A DNA stretch of 6,111 bases, taken from IMG/VR virus record IMGVR_UViG_3300045988_009285; one strand, given 5' to 3'. This document shows positions 429 to 6,111 of this stretch, in pieces (within the stretch, counting starts at the first letter, position 1; every line of letters starts with the position of its first letter). The notes below the pieces were generated by a model. That model had not been told where the DNA came from, did no database searches, and saw nothing but the letters and a program-made list of their open reading frames with translations. This stretch comes from a virus. A program made the translations under genes and the position numbers.

Positions 429-666
429 AATTGATACCAACGAAATCTACAAGGGAATTACAAGAGTCATAAAAACTAAAAAGCAAGACAAAGATGTATG
501 GTTTGCAGTAATCGGCAAAACAATTGTTTCACGTGGAACATTTAATACTAAAGAAGAATGTATAAAAGACCTGGAAAAAACTGATTATGAACAGATTTGT
601 AAGATTGCTATTGCTATTGCTACAGCTCTTAAGGATTATAAACCGGAAAAAGTAGAAAAAGTATGA
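415..666 (+). CDS. Hypothetical protein, 83 aa
   Basis: It overlaps the previous ORF by 14 nt, and its TGA (664-666) overlaps the VP1 ATG (663-665) as ATGA. It has a mixed charged and hydrophobic composition, with no motif I recognise. Confidence 0.6.
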   Translation: MKQNEIDTNEIYKGITRVIKTKKQDKDVWFAVIGKTIVSRGTFNTKEECIKDLEKTDYEQICKIAIAIATALKDYKPEKVEKV

Positions 667-2681
667 AAGTAAACATAGGAAAAAACACACTAGGTGACAA
701 CAATAAGATGTCCGTATCTCTAAGAGAATATGGACGCAGTACCCATGACCTGTCTTATGCGTGGAGGTCACCTATGGGAGTAGGTACACTTGTACCGTTT
801 ATGAAGCTACTGGCGTTACCAGGAGATACATTCGACATCGATTTGGACACAAAAGTGCTGACACATCCGACGGTAGGACCTCTATTCGGGCAATTCAAGA
901 TGCAATTGGACGTATTCACATGTCCATTAAGATTATACCAAGCTCAATTACATAATAATGCACTGAATATTGGGCTGGATATGAAGAAAGTGAAACTGCC
1001 TAAATTCGAAAACAACTTTCAGGTATTAAAAGATGACAAGGCACCGTTTAAAAAATCAAAAAAATCAGGAAAAGGAAGTCTGGCAGAATACCTGGGACTG
1101 AAGTATGAACCTATCAGAGATAAAGTCAACAATGTCAATGCAGTACCTTACTTTGCGTATTACGATGTGTTCAAAAACTTCTACGCCAATAAACAGGAAG
1201 ATTACTTCATGATAATGGGAGGAGGAGTCTTCGTAAGTAATGGAACGGTCACAACAAAGGATACAATACTATATAAAGTAGATAATGCAGGATTATATAT
1301 TAATAGGAAAAATGCTCAAGGAGAAATCGCTAATAAACCCATTCAATTCACAATGTCAAAAGAGTTATGGGAAGCATCAAAAAAAGAGAATACGGTAACA
1401 CTCTACTACGACGTAGATACTGAACCTGTAGGTATTAAGATTAATGGAATTAATTCGTATATCGAAAGTGAAACAGAATCTGGTAACGAAGTAACGGTTA
1501 ATTGCAGAAATAAAACAAAATTAGTATTCGCAGACAAAGAGTTAAGCACGGGAGTTCACACAGCAACAGGAAAGGCATGGACTTCATCACAAGGAGTATG
1601 GATACCATCATACACCAGCTCTTACAAACTTGAAGAAATTGACAACTTAAGGGAGTATATTCTAAAGCAAGGCAAAAAGGAAGTCCTAATAAAGTCTAAT
1701 TCTACGGATGAATGGATAGGAACATCATTCATTAAGGATGTACTGGTAGGGACGGCTAAAGCAGGAGAAAGTGAACCAAAAATCAAGATGCCAATTATTC
1801 AGATGGAGATGGGCGGACTATGCCTAAAGACGCTGCAAAGCGACATCTTTAACAACTGGGTAAACAAAGAGTGGGTAGACGGAGATAATGGAATAAAAGC
1901 AATTACTGACGTAGCAATAACTGACGGGAAACTGAACTTGGACAGCCTGAATATTGCACAGAAGGTATACAACATGCTAAACCGTATTGCAGTGTCAGGA
2001 GGAAGCTATAAGGACTGGATCGAGACGGTATATACTACAGACTATTATTTCAGAGCAGAAACACCTGTATACGAGGGTGGTATGTCTACAATAATTGACT
2101 TTGAAGCCGTAGTAAGTAACTCGGCAAGTACAGCAAGCGGTGTAGAAGAGCCATTGGGAAGCCTGGCAGGACGTGGATACAACGGGCAGAAAAAAGGCGG
2201 AAGGATTGAGATTAAAGTCAATGAACCTTGTTATATCATGGGTATTGCAAGCATTACGCCACTGGTAGACTACTCCCAGGGTAACGACTGGGACAACTGG
2301 CTGGAGACTATGGATGATTTACACAAGCCGCAGCTAGATGGTATCGGTTATCAGGATTTGATGGAAAACAAGATGCACGGACTGGCAAAACCGTCACTGG
2401 CAATAGGAAAGCAGCCTGCATGGCTGGACTACATGACCAACTTCAATAAGACATTCGCAGATTTCGCAGCAGGTGAACAGGAAAGCTATATGGTACTGAA
2501 CCGTATCTACAATGTGGATGACAAGGGAAATATCACAAATTCAACAACATATATCAATCCAAAAGACTACACATATATCTTTGCGACCAACACAGAGACC
2601 AACAGAGACTTCTGGGTACAGATTGGCTGCGGAGTAACCTCAAGACGAGTAATGAGCGCAGCTCAGATTCCATTAATGTAA
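663..2681 (+). CDS. VP1: Major capsid protein VP1 (Microviridae F-protein family), 672 aa
   Basis: The N-terminal block ...GTLVPFMKLLALPGDTFDIDLDTKV...GPLFGQFKMQLDVFTCPLRLY carries the LPGDTF signature typical of microvirus capsids. AVPYFAYYDVFKNFYANKQ matches the conserved (L)P(F)xAYxxIxNxxY block. LNIAQKVYNMLNRIAVSGGSYKDWIETVY matches the conserved R-A-x-x-Q-x-x-x-E-x-x-A-R-G-G-x-R-Y-like block. It is the largest ORF in the window. Met16 (nt 708) is a possible alternative start. Confidence 0.95.
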   Translation: MKVNIGKNTLGDNNKMSVSLREYGRSTHDLSYAWRSPMGVGTLVPFMKLLALPGDTFDIDLDTKVLTHPTVGPLFGQFKMQLDVFTCPLRLYQAQLHNNALNIGLDMKKVKLPKFENNFQVLKDDKAPFKKSKKSGKGSLAEYLGLKYEPIRDKVNNVNAVPYFAYYDVFKNFYANKQEDYFMIMGGGVFVSNGTVTTKDTILYKVDNAGLYINRKNAQGEIANKPIQFTMSKELWEASKKENTVTLYYDVDTEPVGIKINGINSYIESETESGNEVTVNCRNKTKLVFADKELSTGVHTATGKAWTSSQGVWIPSYTSSYKLEEIDNLREYILKQGKKEVLIKSNSTDEWIGTSFIKDVLVGTAKAGESEPKIKMPIIQMEMGGLCLKTLQSDIFNNWVNKEWVDGDNGIKAITDVAITDGKLNLDSLNIAQKVYNMLNRIAVSGGSYKDWIETVYTTDYYFRAETPVYEGGMSTIIDFEAVVSNSASTASGVEEPLGSLAGRGYNGQKKGGRIEIKVNEPCYIMGIASITPLVDYSQGNDWDNWLETMDDLHKPQLDGIGYQDLMENKMHGLAKPSLAIGKQPAWLDYMTNFNKTFADFAAGEQESYMVLNRIYNVDDKGNITNSTTYINPKDYTYIFATNTETNRDFWVQIGCGVTSRRVMSAAQIPLM

Positions 2682-3123: not shown

Positions 3124-4206
3124 ATGGGATTCTTAAATTTTTTAGACAAAGGAGGAGGCGGCCTGATTACAGGAATTGCCAACACAATAACAGGAGCTGT
3201 ACAGAACAAACAGGCACTGGCATGGCAGAAGGAACAGTGGCAGCAACAGATGCAGTACGGACGAGAGATGTGGGAGAAGCAGAACCAGGCAGAAAATGAC
3301 CGTATGGCGCTGCAAAACCAGTGGAACAAGGATGCAGCAGCACAGTCTCAACAGTATGCCAAAGAGATGTTTGACTACACGGGATACGAGAACCAGGTGA
3401 AGCAGATGAAAGCAGCAGGACTAAATCCGGCACTGATGAACGGTGGCGGAGGTTCAGCGGGACAAGCAAGTGCAGGAGCCGAAGTACAGCCAGCACAGGC
3501 ATTTCAGCCGATGGGAATACAGATGGCATTACAGGCACAGCAAGTAATGGCTAACACTCAGCTAGCTAATGCTCAGGCTCAGAAGACAAGAGCCGAGGCT
3601 ACGGCACAGAACATGCAGAACCTGGTAGGCAGTAGCATCGACCTGGCTCAGAAGATTGCCGAGATTGGCAGGACAAAGCAGGAGAAAAAGAACCTGGAAG
3701 TTACCTACGCCAAAACAAAGGAAGAGGTCGAGAAAGTTCAGGAAGAAGTCAATAACCTTATGCTACAGGGAGATATATTGAAAGAAAACAAAGAACTGCT
3801 TGAATTCCAGAACGGAGTGAACAAAATTATCAAGAATGGAATACACTTCGATAGCAAAGGTAAAGAGATAGATTGGGAGCAGTCAGTACTCATGAGATAT
3901 TTCGGGCCTCTCGGTAAGGAAATAGCACAATGGGATAAAGACGAGCAGCAGGCACTGTTCGACAAAGGTGTCCTGGAGCGCATGATGAAAGATATAGACG
4001 CCATTGCAACAGGAAAGACAAACGAATTCTCACTAGCGGGAATGAAGTTCGACTTAATGCAGAAACAGTGGGAAAGAGCAGACTTCGAGCTGGAGCAGGA
4101 CAAGGCAGCATCCAAGCTGCTTGATGAGATGACAGGCGAAGGAGAATATGCGAGACTGCTAGGTAAGGTCTTGAAGCTACTGTTAATAGACCGCAAAAGC
4201 AAGTAA
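3124..4206 (+). CDS. VP2: Minor capsid / DNA pilot protein VP2 (functional analogue of phiX H), 360 aa
   Basis: The N-terminus is glycine-rich (DKGGGGLITGIANTITG). The central motif QVKQMKAAGLNPALMNGGGGS matches the AAGLNP(M/A)L signature I associate with gokushovirus-type VP2. Long heptad-like helical regions rich in Q, A, E and K are consistent with a coiled-coil tube. The position between VP1 and VP4 also fits. Confidence 0.85.
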   Translation: MGFLNFLDKGGGGLITGIANTITGAVQNKQALAWQKEQWQQQMQYGREMWEKQNQAENDRMALQNQWNKDAAAQSQQYAKEMFDYTGYENQVKQMKAAGLNPALMNGGGGSAGQASAGAEVQPAQAFQPMGIQMALQAQQVMANTQLANAQAQKTRAEATAQNMQNLVGSSIDLAQKIAEIGRTKQEKKNLEVTYAKTKEEVEKVQEEVNNLMLQGDILKENKELLEFQNGVNKIIKNGIHFDSKGKEIDWEQSVLMRYFGPLGKEIAQWDKDEQQALFDKGVLERMMKDIDAIATGKTNEFSLAGMKFDLMQKQWERADFELEQDKAASKLLDEMTGEGEYARLLGKVLKLLLIDRKSK

Positions 4207-4409: not shown

Positions 4410-4465
4410 AAGAGGTCGGACCAACAGAAGATGGTAACATCATCGGAAGAAGGTTGCGACCTCTT
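4410..4465 (+). other. Compound stem-loop in three parts: an outer stem, a helix and an apical hairpin
   Basis: The outer 9-bp stem pairs aagaggtcg (4410-4418) with cgacctctt (4457-4465). After a 3-nt bulge there is a 4-bp helix (4422-4425 with 4453-4456). The apical hairpin is gatg-gtaa-catc (4430-4441). All pairings were read directly from the sequence. The structure ends about 50 nt upstream of the VP4 start. Confidence 0.6.
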
Positions 4466-4516
4466 ATTGCTATGTATGGATGTTATTTTAAAGTAAAACT
4501 TAAACAATTATATGGT

Positions 4517-5536
4517 ATGTGCCTGTATACTAAGTATTTATTAAACAAAAAGTATTTACCGACAAAGAAAAATGAATATAATCCGCCAACATGCAATGAC
4601 GAAAGATTGAGATATGTGCCGATAAAGTGCGGGAAGTGCATGGAGTGCCGAAAACAAAAGAAAAGAGAATGGTACGTGCGGCTGTCAGAAGAGTTGAAAC
4701 AGCACAAGGGAGCACTATTCGTGACTCTGACATTCAATGAAGATATGTATGAAGAGACGCGCAAGGCCGTGAAGGCAGGAAACCAGCCGACCTATGAAGA
4801 AGAGAATGACATGTGCCGTTATGCGATAAGACACTGGCTGGAACTGATACGCAAAAGAACGGGAAAGTCCGTCAAGCACTGGGTAATTACAGAGAAAGGT
4901 GAAGACTATAACCGCATACACATGCACGGTATAGTATGGTGCAAAAAAGAAGACGTAGACGCATGGCGTTACGGATATACCTATATAGGGGATTATGTCA
5001 ACGGCAAAACAATCAACTATATAACCAAGTATATGCTGAAAATCAACGAGATATGTCCTGAATTCGAGGGGAAAGTATTCTGCAGTAAAGGTATTGGCCG
5101 AAATTACGAAAAAAGCACAAATGCAAGGCGTAACAGATACCAGGGAGAACGTACTATCGAGACTTACAAGGCAGAGGACGGCCGAGAACTGCCAATGCCA
5201 AAGTACTACCACGACAAGATATACTCAGAAGAAGAGCGCGAAAAGTTATGGATTATCAAACAGGAAAGAGGATACAGATACATAGGAGGTGAAAAGTGCA
5301 GTACAGAAGACCTCGAAGAATGGGATAACTTAACAAGATATTATCAGAGACGGGGTGTAGAAGTATTCGGAGACAAGCCAGACGAATGGGAAAAAAATAA
5401 ACAGCGAAAGCGCCTGGAACGTATGCGTATAGCCAGACGTCGGATGCGCGAAGGTTCCGAAGTTCCCGGAGTTCTCTCCAGACCAGAAGGTAGGGAGCCT
5501 GCGGCTCCGATTATTAACAAGGCTACGCGCGGCTAG
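4517..5536 (+). CDS. VP4: Replication initiation protein VP4 (HUH rolling-circle endonuclease, phiX A-protein family), 339 aa from Met4517
   Basis: There is a Cys cluster, CGKCMECRKQKKREW. RCR motif I is FVTLTF (4718-4735). Motif II is the HUH sequence HMHGIVW (H-M-H at 4919-4927). Motif III, YITKY (5018-5032), has two Tyr residues spaced as in phiX A (YVAKY). An N-terminus of MCLYTK... matches the usual MC... start of microvirus VP4, so I prefer 4517 to the ORF-track start at 4454, which lies within and just downstream of the 3' arm of the upstream hairpin. Confidence 0.92.
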   Translation: MCLYTKYLLNKKYLPTKKNEYNPPTCNDERLRYVPIKCGKCMECRKQKKREWYVRLSEELKQHKGALFVTLTFNEDMYEETRKAVKAGNQPTYEEENDMCRYAIRHWLELIRKRTGKSVKHWVITEKGEDYNRIHMHGIVWCKKEDVDAWRYGYTYIGDYVNGKTINYITKYMLKINEICPEFEGKVFCSKGIGRNYEKSTNARRNRYQGERTIETYKAEDGRELPMPKYYHDKIYSEEEREKLWIIKQERGYRYIGGEKCSTEDLEEWDNLTRYYQRRGVEVFGDKPDEWEKNKQRKRLERMRIARRRMREGSEVPGVLSRPEGREPAAPIINKATRG

Positions 5537-5540
5537 CGCG

Positions 5541-5566
5541 CTGCCCGTGACAGCACTCACGGGCGG
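5541..5566 (+). terminator. GC-rich stem-loop immediately after the VP4 stop; candidate terminator or ssDNA structural element
   Basis: gcccgtga (5543-5550) pairs with tcacgggc (5557-5564) around the 6-nt loop cagcac. A T-G pair and a C-G pair extend the stem to 5541/5566. No T-tract follows, so it is not a canonical intrinsic terminator. Confidence 0.35.
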
Positions 5567-5611
5567 CCTTGGGCCAACTATGTGCAAGGCTCCAAGTATT
5601 CACCTTGTGGA

Positions 5612-5677
5612 TGTTGATAACCTGTTGATAACCTAGTAAAATCGGTTAATAAACCTGTTAATAACTTGTTGATAAAA
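5612..5677 (+). repeat. Iteron-like array A: five + strand copies of TGTT(G/A)ATAAC
   Basis: The first two copies form a perfect 11-nt tandem, tgttgataacc (5612-5622 and 5623-5633). The remaining copies are ggttaataaacc (5644-5655), tgttaataac (5656-5665) and tgttgataaaa (5667-5677). All were read directly. Confidence 0.85.
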
Positions 5678-5724
5678 TAAATGCTTATAATTTGGAATAT
5701 TGAAATGTTTTATTATAAGAAAAT

Positions 5725-5821
5725 GCTTATGAACAATGCAAATAATTTAACAGAAAGTTATGAACAAAGTTATGAACAGGATAAATGATTGAAAATAAAT
5801 GAATTAACATAGTTATGAACA
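5725..5821 (-). repeat. Iteron-like array B: four copies of (a/g)(g/c)TTATGAACA, whose reverse complement TGTTCATAAC is the array A motif with a C at the variable central base
   Basis: The copies are gcttatgaaca (5725-5735), a perfect 12-nt tandem aagttatgaaca (5755-5766 and 5767-5778), and agttatgaaca (5811-5821). On the minus strand they read TGTTCATAAC, so they face array A. Confidence 0.85.
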
Positions 5822-5905
5822 ATTTCAACAGGCTATTATCACTATAATAAGTTTTTATATATAAAAAAAGAAATAAATATATAATAATAGAATTTCTCAA
5901 AAAAT

Positions 5906-5935
5906 TTTGTGTTTTCAAAAAAATGCGTATATTTG
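5906..5935 (+). promoter_or_regulatory. Candidate Bacteroidota-type promoter: a -33 TTTG (5906-5909) and a -7 TAnnTTTG (tatatttg, 5928-5935)
   Basis: The -7 element matches the Bacteroides primary-sigma consensus TAnnTTTG exactly, with a TTTG 18 nt upstream. It sits 25 nt upstream of the ATG at 5961, which opens the long co-directional gene string. None of the gene starts has a Shine-Dalgarno sequence, as is typical of Bacteroidota. Confidence 0.5.
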
Positions 5936-5960
5936 TAATGTAATAAAAAAACAAAGAATT

Positions 5961-6092
5961 ATGAAGAATTATATGATTTATCTAGAAAGGAAAGACAGAC
6001 GTAGAACGTATAGGTACTTTAGGTTTGAGCGTAAAGCAGCTAATTTTAACAAAGCTCTAGAAGCAGCCGAAGCAAAAATTGAAAAAATATGA
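5961..6092 (+). CDS. Small, highly basic protein of 43 aa; candidate DNA-binding or packaging peptide (functional analogue of phiX J)
   Basis: The sequence is MKNYMIYLERKDRRRTYRYFRFERKAANFNKALEAAEAKIEKI. It has 13 Lys/Arg in 43 residues, 9 of them within residues 10-25. It is the first ORF after the candidate promoter, and its TGA overlaps the next ATG (ATGA at 6089-6092, equivalent to 67-70). The ORF-track start at 5907 lies upstream of the predicted promoter -7 box, so 5961 is preferred. Confidence 0.5.
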   Translation: MKNYMIYLERKDRRRTYRYFRFERKAANFNKALEAAEAKIEKI

Positions 6093-6111
6093 CGGATAGG
6101 GGAAAAAAAAC
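6023..6111. repeat. Terminal redundancy, copy 2 (identical to 1..89)
   Basis: Same as copy 1. It contains the 3' end of ORF 5961..6092 and the first 23 nt of the ORF that starts at 67 (equivalent to 6089). Confidence 0.95.

Follow-up and report, generated by a model that had tools for sequence, protein, structure and literature searches.

The 6,111-nucleotide (nt) stretch of DNA analyzed here (IMG/VR record IMGVR_UViG_3300045988_009285, hereafter the window) looks like the complete genome of a microvirus, and its sole long noncoding stretch, which lies 3' of the rolling-circle Rep gene (rep) and ahead of the probable main promoter of the gene block, carries a dense module of short repeats on both strands. 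The module is unannotated in GenBank records, and the question that it raises is what these repeats are for. The reading favored here is that the segment 5612-5830 is a cluster of eight or nine variant DnaA boxes and two degenerate ones, laid out like the DnaA-oligomerization region of the bacterial chromosomal origin oriC and helping replication at the phage origin; we give this a probability of about 0.55, which is a compromise between separate figures for the identity of the boxes and for their role as origin helpers and not the product of the two.

Organization of the repeats

A preliminary description of this DNA reported two repeat families, with nine sites in 5612-5821, five on the plus strand and four on the minus strand. 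Both families are copies of one motif, which on the other strand reads TTATNAACA, and the count of nine is made up of eight exact sites, four per strand, and a degenerate one. The plus strand has exact TGTTNATAA sites at 5612, 5623, 5656, and 5667, and the minus strand has them at 5727, 5758, 5770, and 5813; when the comparison is extended to the full 10-mer (TGTTNATAAC), two of the eight carry a single mismatch and six carry none. The degenerate ninth site, GGTTAATAA / GGTTAATAAA (5644-5653, plus strand), has two mismatches, yet is kept in relatives. The perfect 12-nt tandem (aagttatgaaca twice, 5755-5778) and the aatgcttat repeat (5680-5688 and 5722-5730) are also present as described, as is a spacer between the two arrays, although its length is about 50 nt and not the 47 nt first given.

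The sites form two facing arrays, one of five sites and the other of four sites on the opposite strand, an arrangement kept in relatives. Site-to-site spacings are 11, 21, 12, and 11 nt in the left array (array A) and 31, 12, and 43 nt in the right array (array B), such that neighboring boxes are either 11 to 12 nt apart, with gaps of 2 to 3 bp, or separated by multiples of approximately one helical turn. The observed count is far above that of composition-matched shuffles and simulations. Across the whole window, 10 sites are counted where 0.44 would be expected, a total that no dinucleotide shuffle out of 200 attained; the region 5580-5880 (24% GC) has 8 sites against 0.09 expected under a first-order Markov model of that region, and the maximum in 20,000 Markov simulations of it was 3. 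The parts of the module and its immediate surroundings are as follows, with individual loci given by L numbers.

5511-5519, plus strand: outlying box TTATTAACA, inside the 3' end of rep
5612-5620, minus strand: box A1 (TTATCAACA), the least conserved, a full TTATNAACA in 9 of 16 relatives
5623-5631, minus strand: box A2 (TTATCAACA), 11 nt from A1, TTATCAACA in 15 of 16 relatives
5636-5652, minus strand: unit AAAATCGG plus box A3 (TTATTAACC, 5644-5652), conserved
5656-5664, minus strand: box A4 (TTATTAACA), 12 nt from A3, position 5 T or C among relatives
5667-5675, minus strand: box A5 (TTATCAACA), 11 nt from A4, canonical TTATTCACA in L287, L298, L310, and L317
5676-5726: inter-array spacer, variable except for AAAATTTGGAA (5688-5698), which is conserved in the main subgroup
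5727-5735, plus strand: box B1 (TTATGAACA), missing in the divergent subgroup and, in L001, degenerate jointly with A5
5758-5778, plus strand: tandem boxes B2 and B3 (TTATGAACA-AAG-TTATGAACA), 12-nt period
5801-5809, plus strand: degenerate box B3.5 (GAATTAACA), TAACA invariant
5813-5821, plus strand: box B4 (TTATGAACA)
5822-5839, plus strand: degenerate box B5 (ATTTCAACA), overlapping the invariant CAACAGGCTATTAT
5840-5905, flanking array B on its outward side: the genome's most AT-rich part (about 19% GC), a candidate unwinding region

The repeats as probable variant DnaA boxes

The motif TTATNAACA departs from the DnaA-box consensus TTATNCACA by one fixed change, an A in place of C at position 6, and the two share the location of their free base. 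All eight TTATNAACA boxes match the consensus at 8 of 9 positions, and A3 (TTATTAACC) is further mismatched at position 9. Among 16 aligned modules, eight of the nine positions in boxes A2 to A5 and B1 to B4 are almost entirely invariant and position 5 varies in every box, B2 having all four bases (G, T, A, and C) there among relatives. Position-5 entropy is 0.34 to 1.37 in these boxes, whereas that of the other eight positions is mostly 0, with a few values of 0.34 to 0.54; the exceptions to invariance are few, each in a single sequence, and mostly in L001. Mean column entropy is 0.19 in the boxes versus 0.55 between them. The variable position 5 corresponds to the N of TTATNCACA, which supports the identification of the motif as a DnaA box.

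Variant and canonical boxes also occupy equivalent places. In divergent module-bearing microviruses (L287, L298, L310, and L317) the aligned A5 position holds TGTGAATAA, corresponding to canonical TTATTCACA, and the L287 array additionally includes TTATGCACA. In unrelated phage contigs TTATCAACA and TTATCCACA swap at one position (L069 versus L062) or interleave (L085 and L138). The injection-stop region of phage T5 contains TTATCAACA and TTATTAACA, which are treated there as nonconsensus DnaA boxes (10.1101/866236), and in a study of DnaA binding at the Thermoanaerobacter origin TGTTGATAA lies 3 bp from TGTGGATAA in 2Box3D, a two-box oligonucleotide for electrophoretic mobility shift assays (PMC1888806). 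The repeats are probably DnaA boxes, to which DnaA would bind, and the protein most likely to use them is host DnaA. The preliminary suggestion of a convergent platform for an oligomerizing protein on double-stranded DNA thereby gains support and a specific form, that of DnaA-box variants in an oriC-like layout.

The boxes in bacterial chromosomes and large phages

The exact 21-mer pattern TTATNAACAAAGTTATNAACA was scanned for in viral and bacterial collections, for which the estimated chance expectation is less than one viral match and, the bacterial collection being larger, a handful of bacterial ones. Its abundance greatly exceeds these figures in both collections; at least 120 bacterial loci have it, and the counts from these genome scans are samples of the matches listed. 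Among the 120 bacterial matches listed, at least 51 loci have Bacteroidota names and at least 11 include a dnaA gene, with all five of those checked being confirmed by Pfam. At least 10 of the 120 have the tandem TTATNAACA-AAG-TTATNAACA no farther than about 370 nt from the dnaA 5' end, for which the estimated chance expectation at a random genomic position is below 0.1. The dnaA-adjacent clusters of 10 to 14 boxes combine A-type and C-type boxes (L199, L238, and L188). Taken with the large-phage sites described below, TTATNAACA pairs appear to be a widespread DnaA-box dialect, present at dnaA-linked origins in several phyla and upstream of many promoters in those large phages that have promoters of the Bacteroidota type.

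Origin-like chromosomal clusters of 8 to 13 boxes that are, with one exception in L200, all of the A type are also present. That of L200, a chromosomal contig of Rikenella microfusus (Bacteroidota), has 11 boxes, TTATTAACA with one TTATTCACA, arranged in 12-nt pairs beside an AT-rich run; the others are in L252 (Desulfamplus) and in L268 and L227 (Rickettsiales). The box type is TTATTAACA in L200, L268, and L227 and TTATGAACA in L252, and TTATNAACA may be the principal DnaA-box dialect of some lineages.

In large phage contigs (L051-L164, IMG/VR), the tandem GTTATNAACA-AA-GTTATNAACA is common. Among the 105 nonmicrovirus phage sites listed, a reverse Bacteroidota -7 box (CAAAnnTA) lies 5' of the tandem in 42, versus 12 on the other side, and the distance from tandem to -7 box has a sharp peak at 46 to 48 nt (26 sites). 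One 413-kb contig (IMGVR_UViG_3300031994_000001) has at least eight sites with both tandem and -7 box (L065, L067, L071, L079, L098, L107, L128, and L164). Judging by its position, the box pair is a fixed upstream element of many large-phage promoters, several per genome.

Conservation of the module and its replacement in a sister clade

A scan of IMG/VR for Rep homologues yielded 48 loci. Relatives with Rep identities of 56 to 94%, together with GenBank MT135366, have the same four-plus-four layout with the same spacings, and the 36 more distant Rep relatives (L014-L049) have neither such a cluster nor a cluster of relaxed DnaA boxes. Additional module-bearing microviruses came from a second scan, their Rep, capsid, and pilot proteins being 46 to 52%, 43 to 58%, and 28 to 34% identical to those of the window, respectively. 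Between the window and L010 the noncoding module is 87% identical at the DNA level, whereas the capsid, pilot, and Rep proteins are 49%, 30%, and 56% identical, and module DNA identity is 78 to 94% among phages with protein identities as low as these. Because the module DNA is conserved above the phage proteins, it is apparently either under strong constraint or exchanged between phages.

Conservation is not limited to the boxes, as the AAAATCGG prefix of the A3 unit is conserved equally with them, and a unit of about 21 nt (AAAATCGGTTAATAA; box A3 plus this prefix) is duplicated in L050, L305, L316, and L318. The inter-array spacer is replaced in the divergent subgroup. Contig L157 (8,618 nt) has two nonidentical copies of the module (about 2450-2720 and 8350-8618), approximately one genome length apart, and is probably a concatemer assembled from two co-occurring strains. 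BLAST searches of the window and module, near and distant, against GenBank phages and PLSDB plasmids returned two unannotated microvirus records and no plasmids.

A sister clade (L014-L037) has a different element at this position, approximately 150 nt long, GC-rich and structured, and located about 170 to 190 nt after the rep stop (for example, L024:1790-1965). It contains a conserved CGATATCAAGGTGCTAG, has a DNA fold z score of -2.84, and has stems with compensatory changes visible by eye, for example GTGCACC/GGTGTGC versus GTGTTCC/GGAATGC. It has no Rfam match, and Rfam scans of 5400-6111 and of this element gave only one subthreshold chance match (psRNA6, far under the gathering score). 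An intergenic element of this kind in single-stranded DNA (ssDNA) phages usually has an origin function, and the sister-clade element may be their ssDNA or viral-strand origin. The presence of two different elements at the same genome position suggests that the boxes and the structured element are alternative solutions to one cis-acting, origin-type job.

The flank of array B and a proposed role in replication

The outer flank of array B has an invariant sequence, CAACAG[GC][CA]TAT[TC]AT, at 5826-5839 (CAACAGGCTATTAT), abutting boxes B4/B5. This region matches the viral-strand origin of phiX174, CAACTTG directly followed by ATATTAATAAC (checked in NC_001422), at 15 of 25 positions, and the L005-type variant CAACAGGATATCAT has CAACnnGATAT in common with phiX174. 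We regard CAACAGGCTATTAT as a candidate Rep nick site, a lead and not a demonstration. Several other candidate signals were considered and set aside. The phiX/pC194-type nick motif CTTGATA is absent from the plus strand; an AACTTG inside array A is phiX-like but has a C that varies among relatives; and a GATATTA motif in rep (5337) is kept by only part of the clade. Possible module matches to an IHF consensus and to a CtrA-type TTAA-N7-TTAA were judged by eye to be one off in spacing, and a possible Bacteroidota promoter between the arrays (TA-N3-TTTG, 5686-5694) has noncanonical spacing and is missing in the divergent subgroup.

In the proposed mechanism, host DnaA would fill both arrays cooperatively on the double-stranded replicative form, and the resulting oligomer would act on the DNA outward of array B, namely the origin-like 5826-5839 and the AT-rich 5840-5905. 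There it would melt the flanking DNA, recruit the host helicase and primase, or both, so that the phage Rep nuclease could reach a single-stranded nick site or synthesis could begin that Rep alone cannot start. A role of the boxes as origin helpers is tentative, falling just short of an even chance, and that this role and the DnaA-box identity both hold is at best somewhat less probable again. A more ambitious version, in which the module is a portable mini-oriC, is improbable; host DnaA alone would fire theta-type replication once per host cycle, the phage would persist without an integrase as a plasmid-like episome, in a lysogeny-like or carrier state, and switch to Rep-driven rolling-circle replication for virions, and the conservation would reflect module exchange.

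Several observations weigh against an origin role for a DnaA-box cluster. None of the boxes in the window fits the stringent consensus, all having A and not C at position 6, and the Bacteroidota DnaA-box preference is taken from genomic context. The likeness of CAACAGGCTATTAT to the phiX174 origin extends to only 15 of 25 positions and was spotted post hoc. DnaA-trios are defined as three or more NAN repeats following a short GC spacer (PMC8287927); the best the module offers is TAG-TGA-TAA-TAG (CC) before B5 on the minus strand, of which only the proximal TAG is conserved, and such repeats have little discriminating power in AT-rich DNA. The promoter register in large phages hints at a transcriptional use of the motif that could also apply in the microvirus. 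Finally, the sister-clade microviruses replicate without a DnaA-box cluster, and the module is therefore not a general requirement of the family.

Genome context and probable host

The genes and signals around the module are organized as follows.

663-2681, plus strand: Phage_F-type major capsid gene
3124-4206, plus strand: DNA pilot gene
4454-5536, plus strand: rolling-circle Rep gene (rep)
5527-5564, plus strand: two GC-rich hairpins astride the rep stop codon, in which L003/L010 differ from the window by compensatory changes
5906-5935, plus strand: Bacteroidota-type promoter (TTTG, 18 nt, then TATATTTG), directed into the gene block

GC content drops from about 45% to 19 to 25% at the noncoding stretch after rep, and 200-nt windows over 5701-6000 are at 19%, the genome minimum. 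In the hairpins at 5527-5564, GCGCG/CGCGC is changed to GCGAG/CTCGC and CCCGTGA/TCACGGG to CTCGGGA/TCCCGAG in L003 and L010; no T-run follows them, and they are missing in about half of the clade. Only part of the clade has them, and the box module does not need them. In the divergent subgroup (L287, L298, L310, L317, and L001), rep ends in a hairpin of the intrinsic-terminator type (GGCGGTTAATAACCGC and then a T-run), the loop of which is box-like (GTTAATAAC) and occupies the place of box A1.

The promoter at 5906-5935 is probably the main promoter of the gene block, and its -7 box, TATATTTG, is kept in those relatives that reach that far. All capsid relatives are below 60% identity and are microviruses of animal guts, including five "Parabacteroides phage" records, and the box module was found again in human-gut metagenome contigs and in one porcine microvirus. 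The conserved Bacteroidota promoter together with the Parabacteroides-phage and gut relatives makes a Bacteroidota host likely.

Alternative explanations

Four other explanations of the module were weighed against an origin-helper cluster of DnaA boxes. The boxes could bind DnaA without starting synthesis, either tuning one or more promoters to DnaA-ATP or titrating DnaA away from the host origin when the replicative form is at high copy, like E. coli datA. In E. coli, close-set nonconsensus boxes mark sites filled only by ATP-DnaA, and the module boxes are all nonconsensus and tightly spaced; the cluster also lies upstream of the conserved promoter at 5906-5935, and large phages place their tandems at a fixed 46 to 48 nt from a -7 box (26 of the 105 sites listed). 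However, about 85 nt separate the last box from the -33 element downstream of it, compared with about 15 nt in large phages, inspection of the sequence reveals no promoter in the large-phage register beside either array, and neither a simple operator nor a sink needs two opposed arrays with kept spacing, an AT-rich tract, and an origin-like sequence. Such a regulatory element or sink is unlikely, at roughly a one-in-five level of belief in our judgment. Iterons bound by a protein of the phage itself, either Rep or a small DNA-binding protein, as at the origins of plasmids and of viruses with circular ssDNA that encodes a Rep (CRESS-DNA viruses), would account for phased direct repeats beside a candidate nick site and just downstream of rep, but they are very improbable. 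The motif is constant across Rep identities of 46 to 94%, sister phages with a similarly distant Rep (44 to 51% identical to that of the window) have no such repeats, the small open reading frames beside the module are not conserved across the clade, and the same tandem is widespread in unrelated large phages and in bacteria of many phyla, often beside dnaA.

The preliminary description also considered that arrays A and B fold back on each other in packaged ssDNA. In its most explicit form, the imperfect A/B hairpin would rebuild DnaA boxes in which the mismatch falls at position 5, where no base is read, and DnaA would assemble a primosome there to start the complementary strand, as at the hairpin "A site" of the ABC primosome reportedly described by Masai and Arai. 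The window and L010 do fold into a long A/B hairpin beyond shuffles (plus-strand z scores of -2.58 and -2.71), all 16 relatives are able to form the consensus pairing (97% of cells), the innermost A5 and B1 are degenerate jointly in L001 with one G:C to A:T compensation, and the location is typical of such origins in ssDNA phages. However, pairing potential follows from the fact that inverted copies of one motif must be complementary. Pairable cells amount to 97.1%, against 97.0% in the shuffled control, which reflects the near absence of variation in the columns; a compensatory change is seen in only 1 of 37 pairs, and the A and B units show no covariation. Changes to one arm go uncompensated, including an extra 12-nt B unit in L001, the duplicated A unit in L050, L305, L316, and L318, and the shift of A5 to C-type in four phages with no matching change in array B. 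The fold itself is not conserved, divergent modules doing no better than shuffles, with z scores falling to -1.09 in L298 and -0.43 in L001 though the boxes remain; the arrays are not mirror images (11, 21, 12, and 11 versus 31, 12, and 43 nt), and a hairpin needs no phased direct repeat in each arm. The central purine-purine mismatch that was pointed out is present, but it is the unconstrained position 5 of the box, following the plus-strand skew (G>C and A>T). The conserved feature is, by these comparisons, a protein-binding motif and not a structure, the data give no call for a role of the module in ssDNA, and a complementary-strand origin of this type is rather improbable.

An Xer attachment site (dif mimic) for integration was a further early suggestion, for which the sole support is that TTATG also starts dif half-sites. 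Bacteroidota are known to carry microvirus proviruses, and gokushovirus prophages flanked by dif are likewise known. The earlier failure to find a proper 11-6-11 dif-like site is borne out by a search for the dif inner core, in that the module has no exact ATAA-N6-TTATG site; two one-mismatch matches are made by the boxes themselves. No prophage junction at the element was seen in the genome and metagenome scans, in which the loci listed, at least 120 of them bacterial, include no microvirus prophage. In three long human-gut metagenome contigs (L340, L343, and L375), host genes join phage sequence at residue 57 of Rep, at residue 48 of the capsid protein, and at a point 235 nt upstream of the capsid gene, and GC content at the L340 junction jumps from 59% to 31%. 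Because the junction points differ and lie inside phage genes, and because of the GC jump, these are treated as chimeric assemblies, which they probably are, and not as prophages. The attachment-site explanation is scarcely credible.

Comparison with known systems

The closest architectural parallel for the proposed DnaA-box cluster is E. coli oriC, which, according to Rozgaja and colleagues in 2011 and to the Katayama laboratory, reportedly consists of two opposed DnaA-box arrays with low-affinity sites 2 bp apart and an unwinding element on the outer flank. This element is on the outer flank of the TGTGGATAA-oriented half, beside box R1. The microvirus module likewise has asymmetric 9-mers of the TTATNCACA type in opposed arrays (top strand, TGTNNATAA on the left and TTATNNACA on the right), with boxes 2 to 3 bp apart at a period of 11 to 12 nt and AT-rich DNA on the outer flank of array B, matching oriC in orientation; its box pair is also present at dnaA-linked origins. 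It differs in being part of a 6.1-kb ssDNA phage with its own rolling-circle Rep, in having A at position 6 of all boxes, and in having no convincing DnaA-trios or 13-mers, and this sequence-only comparison offers no evidence of autonomous DnaA-driven replication.

DnaA is also recruited by replicons that encode their own initiators. In pSC101, P1 oriR, RK2, and pKYM, it is placed beside the site of the element's initiator for melting or helicase loading, and the A site of the ABC primosome uses a hairpin-borne DnaA box to prime synthesis on ssDNA. These plasmid and rolling-circle origins differ from the module in having one to five boxes, usually canonical and without opposed phased arrays, and none is from a microvirus. 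Complementary-strand origins of ssDNA phages include the PriA assembly site of phiX174, the primase hairpins of G4, and the M13 minus origin. The module resembles them as a noncoding intergenic element, with the sister clade having a structured element in the same place, but they are defined by conserved structure, whereas the module is defined by a repeated protein-binding motif and its structure is not conserved.

The injection-stop (iss) region of T5-like phages is similar in other respects, as it is noncoding, has eight DnaA or variant boxes (including TTATCAACA and TTATTAACA) with pairs 3 bp apart and inverted repeats, and is kept across divergent phages (10.1101/866236). T5, however, is a 120-kb double-stranded DNA phage, about half of its boxes are canonical, and the role proposed for them is arrest of injection at the membrane and not replication (10.1101/866236).

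Implications

Clusters of DnaA boxes are a known kind of element, and what would be new here is their occurrence in Microviridae. The literature searched yielded nothing specific on DnaA boxes in Microviridae or in Bacteroidota origins and no paper linking box clusters to Microviridae. In the guts of humans and animals, microviruses rank with the most abundant phages; to our knowledge, the replication and persistence of those associated with Bacteroidota are little understood, and we know of no DnaA involvement in textbook microvirus replication, as in phiX174 and G4. A conserved, origin-like module in one clade leads to a hypothesis that is concrete and can be tested, namely that these phages depend on, or sense, the host initiator. 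Handles on it are provided by the conservation of the module, which is better than that of any phage protein gene, by its location beside a candidate Rep nick site, and by its replacement of the structured element of the sister clade. The hypothesis bears on the viral origin, on host range through the DnaA-box dialect, and on possible episomal persistence.

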